Shown piece by piece: positions 1 through 25,335 of a stretch of 43,282 nucleotides of DNA. The stretch is from Candidatus Woesearchaeota archaeon. Its GTDB lineage: Archaea; Nanobdellota; Nanobdellia; Pacearchaeales; GW2011-AR1. The stretch lies in contig CAZUXN010000002.1 in assembly GCA_964624735.1 (NCBI GenBank), positions 1 through 43,282 of the forward strand, written 5' to 3'. The translations under genes and the position numbers were made by a program. The notes under the pieces are model-generated. The model ran no database searches and had not been told where the DNA came from. It worked only from the letters and a program-made list of their open reading frames with translations. The stretch's first letter is position 1, and each line of letters begins with the position of its first letter.

Positions 1-2101
1 CTTGAGGAGCTCTATAACCGGGATCCGGGTTAACCATAGAACCGTGCATAATTCTCCCATCTACCTTATTTGAAAGAGGATCAATCCCAACAATAGTAAC
101 GTTTCCTTTAGGGGTATCAGGAACAACCCAGTAGTCGCCGTTTGCAAACTGGCCGTACTGCACTGGCTCTGAAAATGTCCATGTTATTCCAAACTGTGAA
201 AGCTGGGTTGTGTAATTTCCTAAAACAACTTCGCAACTCCCATCAACACAAACATTTCCTCCTGAACATGTTCCGCAATTTAATGTTCCTCCGCAGCCAT
301 CAATCCAAGTTCCACATTCCTGACCTAAACTTGTACATGTTTCTGGAATACAATTTTCAACACAAACACTTGGCTCTTCTGAACAGCTCCATCCACTCTC
401 AACTTGACAAATATCTGAACATCCATCACCATTATTTAAATTATTATCATCACAATTTTCTCCTGTATCTATAATTCCATCACCGCATTCAATATTTATT
501 ATTTCAATACAGCTTCCTCCTTGCAATTCACAATTTCCTAAATCACAGACATCATCATTACATTCTAATTCATAATAATCATTACAATTAGTTATTCTAT
601 TATTGCATAATTCTTCTTGTGTTACACAATCTTCTCCTCCGAACATAGGGTCATAATAACAATCTGGACAATCATTTTTGCATTTATTATAATTACAATT
701 AATTCCCCAAAATAATTCACAATCAGAACAACTATTGCATGTTTTTTCTAAACATCCTGTTATTGAACAATATTCATAACTCTCACACAATTCATCATCA
801 GGAATATTTTCACATCCAATTAAACTACTACAGCTATCAACTGTGCAGGTTATTGAATCATCACAATTAATTAAACTTCCTTCACATATTCCATTTAAAC
901 ACTGATCATTTTCAGTGCATAAATCATTATCATTACATGAATTTAAATTATATTCTATAGTGCATTCTCCTAAACTGCAGATTTCATCTGTACATTTATT
1001 TCCATCATCAGGACAATCTTCATCTAATATACATGAACAAGAACTTATATCAAACTTACAAGAATCTGTTGTTTCATTGCAGTAAGGGACTGAACAAGTT
1101 AGATTATCATCTTCACAAATTTTTGGTTCTCCATAACATAATCCTCCTAAACAAACATCACTTATTGTGCAGAATAAGCTGTCATCACATATTGTATTAT
1201 CTAACTGATTTTCTTCACTGATATTTATCCATTCTGTTTCATTTATAAGATTATAATCACATGTGCTTAAAGTTAAATTACAATAATAATCTCTATTCTC
1301 TTGTTTTGTCTGATTTATTATTGTGCACGAGCTATTTATTATCTGAGAAACATTATACCAATTATCTTCTGAACACTGAGTATCATTTATGCATTGTAAG
1401 ATACAAATTCCTTCCTGACATGTTTTTTCTTCTTCACATTGACCACAGCTTCCACCACAACCATCATCTCCGCAGTTTTTATTTTCACAATTAGGTGTGC
1501 ATGTTGAAGGAGAAGAAGATGACCCTCCTCCATTACTTCCCCCACCTCCAGGACTAGGAGTTGTTTTTGTTGTGTCTAAACTAGGTGAATCAATTGCATC
1601 TCCTGATTCTGTTTTATATTCAAAAACAACACTTACTTCTTCTATATTTTTAAAATTCTCCAAACCTAAATCTTGTGCATTAATCTGATAATCATAATTT
1701 CCTTCAAACTGTTTTCCTAAAATCCAGTCTATAAATCCTTTTTTTAATGGAATACTTATCTCCTGAATTCCTTCATCTGTCTCATAACCATAATTATTTT
1801 TTCCTGACTTAAAAACAAACTTTATTTTTGTTATGTTTTTATTTAAACTTCCTCCTGCTAATTTTAAATAAGATAATCTTCCATCCTCGCTTAACAAAGC
1901 AGATTCTATATTTGCTCCAATGCCAAGAGTTTTTTCAGGAGTTTTGTAATACTGATAAAAAGAAAATAAAAGAAAAATTATAATAATCAAAAGAACAGAA
2001 ATAATTGGAACAACAAAGAATTTTTTGAGTTTCTGGCTTCTTTTGCTTTTCTCTAATTTTTTTAAAATATCTATAGTTTCTTCTTTTTTTGAATCTTGCA
2101 T
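1..2101 (-). CDS. Cysteine-rich membrane-anchored surface protein, N-terminal 700 codons (3' end lies beyond position 1)
   Basis: Own minus-strand translation from ATG 2101-2099: MQDSKKEETIDILKKLEKSKRSQKLKKFFVVPIISVLLIIIIFLLF (TM anchor), then a G/S/P linker (TPSPGGGGSNGGGSSSSPS). The frame stays open to position 1 and is packed with Cys motifs, incl. CGDGIIDTGENCDDNNLNNGDGCSDICQVESGWSC (Myxococcus-type Cys-rich repeat pattern). Absent from the ORF track because there is no stop in the window. Confidence 0.8.
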   Translation of the reverse strand, partial: MQDSKKEETIDILKKLEKSKRSQKLKKFFVVPIISVLLIIIIFLLFSFYQYYKTPEKTLGIGANIESALLSEDGRLSYLKLAGGSLNKNITKIKFVFKSGKNNYGYETDEGIQEISIPLKKGFIDWILGKQFEGNYDYQINAQDLGLENFKNIEEVSVVFEYKTESGDAIDSPSLDTTKTTPSPGGGGSNGGGSSSSPSTCTPNCENKNCGDDGCGGSCGQCEEEKTCQEGICILQCINDTQCSEDNWYNVSQIINSSCTIINQTKQENRDYYCNLTLSTCDYNLINETEWINISEENQLDNTICDDSLFCTISDVCLGGLCYGEPKICEDDNLTCSVPYCNETTDSCKFDISSCSCILDEDCPDDGNKCTDEICSLGECTIEYNLNSCNDNDLCTENDQCLNGICEGSLINCDDSITCTVDSCSSLIGCENIPDDELCESYEYCSITGCLEKTCNSCSDCELFWGINCNYNKCKNDCPDCYYDPMFGGEDCVTQEELCNNRITNCNDYYELECNDDVCDLGNCELQGGSCIEIINIECGDGIIDTGENCDDNNLNNGDGCSDICQVESGWSCSEEPSVCVENCIPETCTSLGQECGTWIDGCGGTLNCGTCSGGNVCVDGSCEVVLGNYTTQLSQFGITWTFSEPVQYGQFANGDYWVVPDTPKGNVTIVGIDPLSNKVDGRIMHGSMVNPDPGYRAPQ

Positions 2102-2434: not shown

Positions 2435-2486
2435 ATTAGGAATTAGGGGTAATTTTATAAATTGGGATTTCTGTTAATGTTTGTAT

Positions 2487-2612
2487 GAGGCTGTGGCGCA
2501 GCCCGGTAGCGCACCGCTCTGATAAGTACGAACTTGTTCGTTCATTTGCGAAATCATCGTTCACGAGATTTCAGAAAGGCGGGGGTCCCAGGTTCAAATC
2601 CTGGCAGTCTCA
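2487..2612 (+). tRNA. tRNA-Ile (anticodon GAU) with a ~52-nt intron at the canonical 37/38 position
   Basis: Hand fold: acceptor GAGGCTG/CAGTCTC, D arm GCGC-AGCCCGGTA-GCGC, anticodon stem CCGCT/GGCGG, loop CTGATAA (GAT at 2521-2523), T arm CCAGG-TTCAAAT-CCTGG, discriminator A2612, no encoded CCA. Intron ~2525-2576. Loop CTGA (2519-2522) pairs with TCAG (2571-2574), leaving an AAA bulge next to the stem (BHB-like). Confidence 0.85.
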
Positions 2613-2639
2613 TGTTCGAACCTGGGAGCATAGGGTCCC

Positions 2640-2723
2640 TGCTCACGATTTGCATTTTCGAAAGATAGTGAATTTAAATTCGAAAAAGCGAATCGTTCGG
2701 GTTCAAAGACCTGGCAGTCTCAT
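2640..2723 (+). pseudogene. Degenerate duplicate of the intron 3' part plus 3' exon of the adjacent tRNA-Ile
   Basis: Ends in the same 14 nt CCTGGCAGTCTCAT (2600-2613 = 2710-2723). AAGCGAATCGTTCGGGTTCAAAGACCTGG parallels AGGCGGGGGTCCCAGGTTCAAATCCTGG, but the T arm needs G-U pairs and an 8-nt loop, and there is no 5' half. Confidence 0.5.
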
Positions 2724-2772
2724 TGGTGGGATTGAAGGGAAGTTTTAAAAAGCAAATTTTGATAATGAGGAT

Positions 2773-3339
2773 ATGGGAATTACAAAATATTTGAGGGCGG
2801 CGTGGAAAAAACCCGACGTGAAAGTTTTGAGAACGCGGATGATTGAGTGGCGGAAGGGAGAGGCTATTACTCGAGTTAAGAAGCCGTCGAGGCTGGATAG
2901 GGCGCGGGCGTTGGGATACAAAGCGAAGAAAGGGGTGAGTGTTGTTAGAGTTAAAATTAAACGAGGTGGGCATAAGAGGACGAGACCAAATAAGGCGAGG
3001 CGGACTAAGAGATTGCATATTAGAAAGAATTTGAATATGAATTATAAGGAAATTGTGGAGCAAAAAGTTGCGAGGAGATTTAGTAATATGGAAGTTTTGG
3101 GTTCGTATTGGATTGGGAAAGATGGGATGAATTATTTTTATGAGGTTATTTTGGTTGACAGAAATGAGCCGGGAATTTTGAATGATAAAGAATTGGGAGC
3201 TTTTGTGAAGGCGCCGAAAAGGGGAGCGTTGAGAGGATTGACTTCTGCCGGCAGAAAAGCGAGAGGATTGAGGAATTCGGCGATTAAGGTTTCGAAAGTA
3301 TGTCCGTCGCTGAGGGCGAATAAGAGAAGAAGTAATTAA
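2773..3339 (+). CDS. rpl15e: 50S ribosomal protein L15e (eL15)
   Basis: 188 aa, MGITKYLRAAWKKPD..., very basic. Overall eL15 pattern and typical length. Confidence 0.9.
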   Translation: MGITKYLRAAWKKPDVKVLRTRMIEWRKGEAITRVKKPSRLDRARALGYKAKKGVSVVRVKIKRGGHKRTRPNKARRTKRLHIRKNLNMNYKEIVEQKVARRFSNMEVLGSYWIGKDGMNYFYEVILVDRNEPGILNDKELGAFVKAPKRGALRGLTSAGRKARGLRNSAIKVSKVCPSLRANKRRSN

Positions 3340-24552: not shown

Positions 24553-24569
24553 CCTAGTCCCAGACTAGG
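24553..24569. other. Perfect 7-bp hairpin between the VR-like and TR-like repeats
   Basis: CCTAGTC-CCA-GACTAGG flanked by GGGG/T-run on the + strand (A-run/CCCC on the minus strand). Confidence 0.6.
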
Positions 24570-24627: not shown

Positions 24628-25335
24628 CTATTTTTTCGAGCCGACGCCTTCGGCGTGAACCAGCCCCACCCGGCCATCGCCGCCCGAATCCGCGAGATTG
24701 TCGTTCCAGACGATCAGGTTGCCGTCGCCCACATATAGCCTCGACAATCCGGTCCGTTTTGTAAAAACTTTAATCTTAGTACCATCAAACTCTATTTTTT
24801 TTTCGTTATTTGAATAGGCGAATCTTGGGTCTATGATTATTTGTGTTTCATCTGTTTCTACAAATTTGTATCCTTGTTTGGTATTTGCTTCGGCTATTCT
24901 TAATCCGATAAATCTTGCTGGGTTTTCTGAGTCGTAAGATATATTACCTTGGTTTTTTGCTATACCTGCTAAGTTAGTTGATGGTTGGGATACATCGTTT
25001 GAGTAAAGTATTGCTTCTTTTATGTCGGCGTATATTCCTTCGAATGGGTTTATATTGTTGGCTTGCCCATGGGCGATTATTCTTACTGCGTCTTCTAGGG
25101 ATAGGGTTGCTATATTTGTTCCTTTTAGGAGTTCTGTTGTTGCTATTACGAAGGGTAGACTTGAGCCTGTGGCGTTTTCTATATTGAATCCGGAGTTCAT
25201 GATTGTTTTGTATCCTGGTGAATCTTTACCAAATCTTCCGATTAGAAAATCATTTACCCTTTGATACATAGATAAATCTGCTTGTATAATTCTTAATCCA
25301 TTTGTTGCGGGGATATCTATGTTTAGGTTTGCCAT
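24628..25335 (-). CDS. Hypothetical protein; candidate former DGR target (VR-like C-terminus)
   Basis: 235 aa, no recognised fold. The last ~35 aa (SRLYVGDGNLIVWNDNLADSGGDGRVGLVH..) are encoded by a locally GC-rich stretch repeated at 24362-24434. Confidence 0.6.
   Translation of the reverse strand: MANLNIDIPATNGLRIIQADLSMYQRVNDFLIGRFGKDSPGYKTIMNSGFNIENATGSSLPFVIATTELLKGTNIATLSLEDAVRIIAHGQANNINPFEGIYADIKEAILYSNDVSQPSTNLAGIAKNQGNISYDSENPARFIGLRIAEANTKQGYKFVETDETQIIIDPRFAYSNNEKKIEFDGTKIKVFTKRTGLSRLYVGDGNLIVWNDNLADSGGDGRVGLVHAEGVGSKK
24676..24748 (-). repeat. Variable-repeat-like copy (inside the CDS 3' end)
   Basis: See 24362-24434. There are 14 mismatches, 7 of them at adenines of the RT-proximal copy. 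Confidence 0.6.

Follow-up and report, generated by a model that had tools for sequence, protein, structure and literature searches.

An inverted instance of a genus-wide hairpin-insertion module behind the intron-containing tRNA-Ile(GAU) gene of a Candidatus Woesearchaeota archaeon

tRNA genes are classic landing sites of mobile DNA, and how archaeal tRNA introns, split tRNAs, and tRNA fragments arose is a matter of continuing debate. MITE and IS200/IS605 elements generate a short target duplication of fixed length, or none in the case of IS200/IS605. The module described in the present study, built around a hairpin behind tRNA genes, resembles MITEs, IS200/IS605-derived PATEs, and REP/BIME sequences in being a family of short non-coding hairpins with many copies, both orientations, and conserved asymmetric mismatches in the stem. 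In contrast to MITEs and PATEs, however, no cognate transposase tracks it (Y1 in 3/25 genomes), near-identical copies are lacking within a genome except for local duplicates, and its target duplication of 10 to 30 nt comes with an inverted piece and is nearly exclusive to tRNA 3′ ends. Template-switch rearrangements (the Ripley quasi-palindrome; fork stalling and template switching) offer a further parallel, as the T-arm pieces of the module lie in direct-inverted-direct order with the palindrome centre at tRNA position 45/46, and the host shows strand asymmetry. Unlike such rearrangements, the module has a conserved inserted sequence and identical junctions at more than 30 sites.

Insertion with long target duplication (ILTD) of bacterial restriction-modification genes, as described by Nobusato, Furuta, and Kobayashi (PMC2853133), has in common with the module that the target repeats are longer and more variable than transposase duplications and that no mobility gene is present. 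The original definition of ILTD sets repeats of more than 30 bp (PMC2853133), and most repeats of the hairpin module are shorter. Moreover, the insert there is a gene cassette, whereas here it is a 64-nt non-coding hairpin at a defined position of the tRNA T-arm, with an inverted copy of the target always beside the direct one. Integrase-type integration into tRNA genes (SSV- and pNOB8-type elements; tRNA-Thr of Caldiarchaeum, PMC3293823) also keeps the tRNA intact and leaves a displaced partial copy beside the insert. The Caldiarchaeum case (PMC3293823) furthermore resembles ours in intron gain, the tRNAs that carry a new intron family here having partial copies as well. In contrast, our loci hold neither an integrase gene nor an element of kilobase scale, their flanks match many different tRNAs, and the core interrupts the repeated T-arm. 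Finally, tRNA intron transposition in Thermoproteales (PMC4090602) finds its likeness in a single intron family that occurs here in tRNAs for Ile, Arg, and Asn and is absent from their orthologues; it differs in that the family here has three known copies only, each of them at the canonical position.

The tRNA-Ile(GAU) locus and its intron

The window, that is, the whole stretch of 43,282 nt that was analysed, contains the following features at and around tRNA-Ile.

2454..2461, plus strand: TATA-like box TTTATAAA, about 26 nt upstream of tRNA-Ile and presumed to be its promoter (read from the sequence)
2487-2612, plus strand: tRNA-Ile(GAU) gene (Rfam RF00005 tRNA, 51.3 bits; the match has an insert of 53 nt in the anticodon loop)
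2487..2524, plus strand: exon 1, tRNA positions 1-37 (Rfam RF00005; ARAGORN -i)
2525..2576, plus strand: intron of 52 nt at the canonical position 37/38, in a putative, relaxed bulge-helix-bulge, BHB (ARAGORN i(40,52); pairing from sequence and fold)
2577..2612, plus strand: exon 2, tRNA positions 38-73 (Rfam, ARAGORN)
2615..2627, plus strand: inverted copy of tRNA positions 59->47 (5′ part of the T-loop, 5′ strand of the T-stem, variable region), inverted repeat I2, 12/13 complementary
2633..2641, plus strand: forward copy of tRNA positions ~44-52 (GGGTCCCTG against GGGTCCCAGG), read from the sequence and corresponding to the forward 46-53 copy of the family
2640..2701, minus strand: hairpin core of class A, ~64 nt, inverted relative to the tRNA (model R1, 68.1 bits)
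2700..2723, plus strand: distal copy of tRNA positions 52-73 with one further base; 2710-2723 (positions 61-74) are an exact match
2744..2753, plus strand: TTTTAAAAAG box, presumed rpl15e promoter (the same motif lies in the intergenic regions of relatives)
2773..3339, plus strand: rpl15e, ribosomal protein L15e, the conserved downstream neighbour (ORF; Pfam PF00827 on the identical protein; synteny in relatives)

The first-pass annotation of this DNA had proposed an intron-containing tRNA-Ile that folds once ~52 nt are removed, and this was borne out. Removal of the intervening sequence gives a cloverleaf with both the Rfam tRNA model and ARAGORN. ARAGORN needs its intron mode for the call, reporting tRNA-Ile(gat) i(40,52) with a 52-nt intron after position 37; without that mode it finds no tRNA in the window. 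The gene is functional, and it is the sole tRNA-Ile(GAU) found in the assembly, which is ~84% complete. For the 5′ exon, the upstream region is alignable in congeners (query 4-47). The neighbours of the locus are a Cys-rich protein, rpl15e, thioredoxin, and DNA ligase. The Cys-rich protein (2-2101, minus strand) lies directly upstream of the presumed tRNA-Ile promoter; it is a very large (>700 aa), repeat-rich secreted or membrane protein that extends past the window edge. Since the region 2400-2800 is identical in five independent public assemblies from other samples, the locus is no assembly artefact.

An exact 14-nt repeat of the tRNA 3′ end, CCTGGCAGTCTCAT, stands at 2600-2613 and 2710-2723, just as had been noticed earlier, and none of 100 shuffles gave any match. 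With the upstream GGTTCAAA included, 22 of 24 bases agree. The 97 nt between the two repeats hold no ORF. They belong to a module that contains, in gene order, two filler bases, the inverted 59->47 piece, the forward ~44-52 piece, and the inverted core of ~64 nt, followed by the repeat of positions 52-73. The core scores 68.1 bits on the minus strand (E ~1e-13) against 17.3 bits on the plus strand and has an 18-bp stem (2645-2662 with 2679-2696, inverted repeat I1); the fold of the tRNA-Ile trailer has a z of -3.1. In the distal copy the T-loop is 8 nt long, and this one extra base weakens the T arm.

This layout redraws the extent of the second copy. The earlier reading took it to reproduce the tail of the intron, the anticodon-stem strand AGCGA, and a variable loop, but the stretch 2640-2701 is the hairpin core, and AGCGA is the complement of the invariant TTCGCTT of the hairpin family. 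The half-gene extent from intron tail through variable loop is a chance likeness to an unrelated hairpin element. The additional T-loop suggested at 2614-2626 is real, at 2615-2627, but it is the reverse complement of positions 47-59 (12/13) rather than a forward T-loop. As to the distal "second 3′ half" itself, we infer a target-derived duplicate that arose from the insertion and has no function as part of a tRNA.

The intron would lie in a putative BHB whose central helix of 4 bp pairs C32-A35 (2519-2522) with 2571-2574, and whose 3-nt bulges (2523-2525 and 2575-2577) each place the splice site between bulge bases 2 and 3, both as drawn by hand. The inner helix is weak, with one G.U pair, and for this reason the BHB is called relaxed; the minimum-free-energy fold takes a shifted register. 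The splicing endonuclease EndA is encoded in the genome (PF01974, 97.7 bits, C11:5324-5584) and can be expected to remove the intron. None of the 22 other tRNA-Ile(GAU) genes of the genus that were examined has the intron, which is a recent, lineage-specific gain. Its 5′ part, AGTAYGAASNNGTTCRTYCATT, occurs at three sites only in 41 genomes, namely in this tRNA-Ile, in the tRNA-Arg(UCU) of the same genome, and in the tRNA-Asn(GUU) of another species (G019), always at 37/38; the orthologues of these three tRNAs that were read in other species do not carry it. One intron family has recently entered three different tRNA genes (Ile, Arg, and Asn) in two species. The intron of the tRNA-Arg(UCU) gene (G000 C20:10170-10484) is 43 nt long. 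Separately, tRNA-Glu(CUC) has a conserved intron of 87-89 nt with a GAUGAGA box in two species (G000 C1:4969-5128 and L084 in G013), and this intron might carry a C/D-box-like RNA.

The start of the tRNA-Ile intron equals the 3′ end of the hairpin core joined to the 5′ end of the core (AGTA+CGAAC), and TTTGCGAAAT is common to both. Local alignments between intron and core are weakly significant (p 0.004-0.07), and covariance model R1 found no match on the introns. With alignments this weak and the covariance model silent, descent of the intron from the core was not adopted and is kept as a lead only.

A hairpin family with a fixed layout at tRNA 3′ ends

In the same genome, 7 of the 36 tRNAs have a repeat of their own 3′ end within ~40-110 nt downstream, whereas in a control genome of another genus (400 kb) none of 26 tRNAs had such repeats or inverted copies. 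Most of the sequences between the repeats hold a common imperfect hairpin of ~64 nt with the consensus CGAACAATTCGCTTTGAGCAAA-loop-TTTGCGAAATGCAAATTGYGAGTA. Covariance model R1, built from seven hairpin copies that lie behind tRNAs other than tRNA-Ile, gave 127 matches at ~126 sites in 23 of the 25 species of the genus: nine in the genome studied and, among the 24 other species, between 1 and 11 in each of 22. No match was obtained in 16 genomes of other genera of the same order. Public records with the hairpin motif are labelled Candidatus Pacearchaeota, Woesearchaeota, or Nanoarchaeota.

The hairpin is strongly kept. Pairing covers 96.5% of all cells, and in 13 of 14 pairs both partners have changed, a level reached by 0/500 shuffles. 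TTCGCTT and ATGCAAA are invariant, 66 of 69 copies retain a C.A mismatch, and the hairpin has two tandem G.A/A.G motifs. The invariant motifs and the kept C.A mismatch point to purifying selection. On the forward strand, G:T pairs outnumber A:C pairs by 41 to 10. Copies within one genome are 70-89% alike, and the repeats within a single locus 0.97-1.0. Rfam holds no family for the hairpin and gave chance matches below threshold only, and literature searches returned nothing resembling a tRNA-linked hairpin module. The module is previously undescribed, confined to one genus, and linked to tRNA 3′ ends, and the tRNA-Ile locus is an instance with the core inverted.

A tRNA lies within 400 nt in 51 of 60 fetched copies, and several of the remaining ones stand at contig ends or adjoin degenerate tRNAs. 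The core starts 22-30 nt past the tRNA end, and, when numbered by tRNA position, the 36 canonical copies follow one layout: the discriminator, 0-5 filler bases, an inverted copy of ~59/60->45, a forward copy of 46-53, the core, and a post-core copy. The inverted copy seen at tRNA-Ile is present in at least 30 other hairpin loci. In 24 of 32 canonical copies the forward 46-53 piece directly abuts the core. The post-core copy begins at position 57 in 16 loci and at 62-65 in nine, and its last position is 73 in 29 of 33 loci. The direct repeats vary from 10 to 30 nt, apart from the inverted copy of the target; of 34 such repeats, 21 stop at the tRNA end, and 13 continue into the spacer for another 5-29 nt. 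The tRNAs concerned represent more than 20 isoacceptors, and in every case the flanks agree with the tRNA at that locus. The orientation of the core is that of its tRNA in 49 of 56 copies and opposite in seven, the tRNA-Ile copy among them.

Some variants of the arrangement are also found. Tandem arrays of cores occur, other hairpins, unrelated or distantly related, occupy the same slot behind tRNAs, and two non-tRNA sites (L059 and L078) have the layout a-b-rc(a)-a′-core-b′. At G000 C20:10170-10484 the promoter and positions 1-47 of tRNA-Arg(UCU) occur a second time, upstream of the real gene; this copy has no intron and has a core in its D-loop. A pseudo-tRNA-Cys with its anticodon stem split by a core (G000 C20:10521-10741) is followed, after ~165 nt, by an intact tRNA-Cys at the end of the contig. 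tRNA-Glu(UUC) (G000 C18:6200-6445) is followed by three tandem cores with repeated copies of its 3′ end, and the nearby tRNA-Ser(UGA) by a different hairpin with UGAUGA, behind which 10 nt of the tRNA-Ser 3′ end are repeated.

Turnover between species and the search for an enzyme

Most congeneric tRNA-Ile(GAU) genes sit just upstream of rpl15e. The locus was compared in relatives, as the first-pass annotation had advised. The orthologous site is empty in four cases (L005, L015, L021, and L022). It holds a class A core in the usual orientation at L008, a related variant core in at least two tandem units at L009, and other hairpin inserts, sometimes two in tandem, at L006, L007, L010, L016, and L017. 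In three species with an almost identical tRNA-Ile, which has one inserted base in L010, the site holds a class A core once (L008) and unrelated inserts twice (L007 and L010). The repeated target sequence is single-copy at the empty tRNA-Ile/rpl15e sites and doubled around the insert at the filled ones. Since orthologous sites are empty or bear other inserts, the module is dispensable and turns over. Furthermore, relative to the rpl15e promoter, the distal repeat of our locus sits about where the empty sites of relatives have the tRNA end; the module is therefore an insertion of ~110 nt directly behind the gene or, equivalently, inside the T-loop. At L006 (G023), an ORF-bearing insert of ~540 nt separates the distal tRNA-Ile repeat from rpl15e, so that the site also admits DNA of gene size. 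A metagenome scan gave no strain-level empty allele, and the five assemblies that encode an identical L15e are identical at the locus. No filled/empty polymorphism within one species was found, nor was a clean intermediate with fold-back and duplication and no core.

No transposase, reverse transcriptase, Cas1, or specific integrase tracks the hairpin element. Y1 transposase (PF01797) occurs in three of the 25 genomes of the genus and reverse transcriptase in nine of 25, neither of them in the genome studied, and Cas1 in one of 25. The genome has two Xer-like recombinases, with PF00589 matches on contigs C4 and C22 only and not on the tRNA-Ile contig; such recombinases are equally present in genera that have no hairpin element. 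A search for an autonomous parent delimited by the core arms, in which motifs were allowed two mismatches, gave pure noise. Elsewhere in the window, an Rfam RT-16 RNA (24434-24569, minus strand, 83.8 bits with a gathering score of 50) lies between ORFs that have no Pfam matches (24065-24433 and 24628-25335); this "RT-associated" motif stands by itself, as no RVT_1 reverse transcriptase was found in the assembly.

The genome has a pronounced strand asymmetry, with a contig-scale GC skew of ~0.3-0.5 in either direction (for example, +0.34 on C2 and -0.46 on C5) as against 0.03-0.11 in a control genus of the same order. Within it, all ten cores read forward on the C-rich strand. As a general rule of core polarity this fails in other species, where 12 cores lie on the G-rich and 11 on the C-rich strand (5-kb flanks). 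A weaker rule holds, in that the cores opposed to their tRNA are on the C-rich strand in seven of seven cases.

Origin of the module and its meaning

The downstream copy had first been regarded as a scar without function, left where the 3′ end of the tRNA underwent an insertion or duplication, and in this general form the idea holds, with only 2700-2723 being derived from the tRNA. Its specific version, an att-type scar, supposes that a plasmid or virus was integrated by a tyrosine integrase and later lost or reduced, leaving attL and attR ~100 nt apart. Direct repeats of a tRNA 3′ end are indeed the usual footprint of integration, which is established knowledge and is discussed in PMC2853133. 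In Caldiarchaeum an integrating element left a tRNA fragment together with a new intron (PMC3293823), which counts for this explanation, as do the two Xer-like recombinases of our genome. However, excision by an integrase would restore one att site and not two, neither an ORF nor an integrase remnant lies in the 97 nt between the repeats, and the repeat is broken in the T-loop by the core. The recombinases are encoded on other contigs and belong to a family equally present in genera that do not have the element. One family of 64-nt cores stands at more than 20 tRNA species in the same layout with local flanks; a single attP cannot explain it, and a separate attP would be needed for each tRNA. 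The att-type scar is accordingly very unlikely. Still more improbable, to the point that we give it hardly any weight, is a split or alternative 3′ half of the kind found in Nanoarchaeum or Caldivirga, joined to the 5′ half through trans-splicing or alternative splicing, an option that had been rated low from the outset. The last 14 nt are identical and a T-stem-like hairpin of 4 bp can still form, but the tRNA-derived part begins at position 52 only, the apparent anticodon-stem strand being hairpin core, and at most other tRNAs the copy begins at 57 or later. With its 8-nt T-loop the region is not scored by any tRNA model, and a search for a second complete tRNA with Rfam and ARAGORN, the latter advised as a check, returned none. 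Moreover, joining would recreate the same tRNA only, and the upstream sequence pairs with itself (the 18-bp hairpin I1) and not with exon 1 or the intron, leaving no BHB leader for trans-splicing.

A functional RNA is the main rival. Here the module would be co-transcribed with the tRNA and act as a trailer small RNA freed by RNase Z or as a processing or termination signal, with the repeat of the 3′ end serving as a T-stem that closes the hairpin. The core is co-oriented with its tRNA in 49 of 56 copies and starts at a fixed 22-30 nt, TTCGCTT and ATGCAAA are invariant, the tandem G.A/A.G motifs and the C.A mismatch are kept, both stems show compensatory changes, and G:T exceeds A:C on the sense strand (41 vs 10). 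Copies of one genome have diverged with the fold kept; it is this divergence with kept motifs, together with the co-orientation and the G:T excess, that keeps a functional RNA in view. Against it, orthologous sites in close relatives are empty or hold unrelated inserts, seven copies including that of tRNA-Ile are inverted, and tandem arrays exist. Cores also occur away from tRNAs and, in pseudo-copies, within the D-loop or the anticodon stem, and the extreme strand asymmetry of the genome could alone yield the G:T excess. We therefore judge this explanation unlikely, though not negligible. A terminator role was considered as the cause of the co-orientation and dropped, as T-runs of at least five are equally common on both core strands (27 vs 30 of 69). 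The core as a BHB intron in the T-loop was likewise dropped; when drawn by hand, the hairpin stacks with its base straight onto the T-stem and just one of the strands bulges, by 6 nt, which does not make a BHB.

The explanation that we hold to be the probable one, with moderate confidence, is an insertion module of the genus-wide hairpin family that arose at the DNA level, linked to replication or repair, and duplicated the tail of the tRNA. It comes closest to a suggestion made in passing at the outset, namely that the second copy is a product of a local duplication process. This reading is favoured by four observations taken together: no enzyme tracks the element, the T-arm pieces are arranged as if by template switching, the repeats are like those of ILTD, and the genome has a marked GC skew. 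An event centred on the T-arm and run by the replication or repair machinery of the host would have made a new, partial duplicate of the tRNA tail and copied the hairpin to where its T-loop belongs, the junctions being at 53/57. The tRNA gene proper would retain its intact 3′ end, and a short T-arm fold-back would be written between gene and core. In type, such an event would be a template switch or an insertion with long target duplication, and not recombination by an integrase. The flanking direct repeats would also permit precise loss, which would leave junctions such as GGTTCAAAT-CCTGGCAGTCTCAT-TGGTGGG, and such loss fits the rapid turnover between species.

The direct-inverted-direct order looks like template switching, yet the exact layout is not derivable from a simple two-step template switch, and random template switching leaves the conserved insert and the same junctions at more than 30 independent sites unexplained. 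It is conceivable, if rather doubtful, that the hairpin is a self-propagating element of a new kind, DNA- or RNA-templated, which would recognise the T-arm by structure, insert at 53/57, re-create the intact 3′ end, write the fold-back, and use host enzymes only; the pool of such elements may also seed tRNA introns, since the intron family gained by the tRNAs for Ile, Arg, and Asn starts with both ends of the core joined. The likeness of 70-89% among copies of one genome is unlike a recent MITE burst.

The modules mimic att scars and tRNA halves and will therefore confound calls of integrated elements or "split tRNAs" when metagenome-derived DPANN genomes are annotated. Throughout a whole genus, tRNA 3′ ends are rebuilt reproducibly and on a small scale around a 64-nt hairpin, with no integrase or transposase found. 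The mechanism, if worked out, would explain how tiny, streamlined genomes gain and lose DNA at essential genes without lethality. Hairpin elements, template switching, and intron gain may be connected in these archaea.
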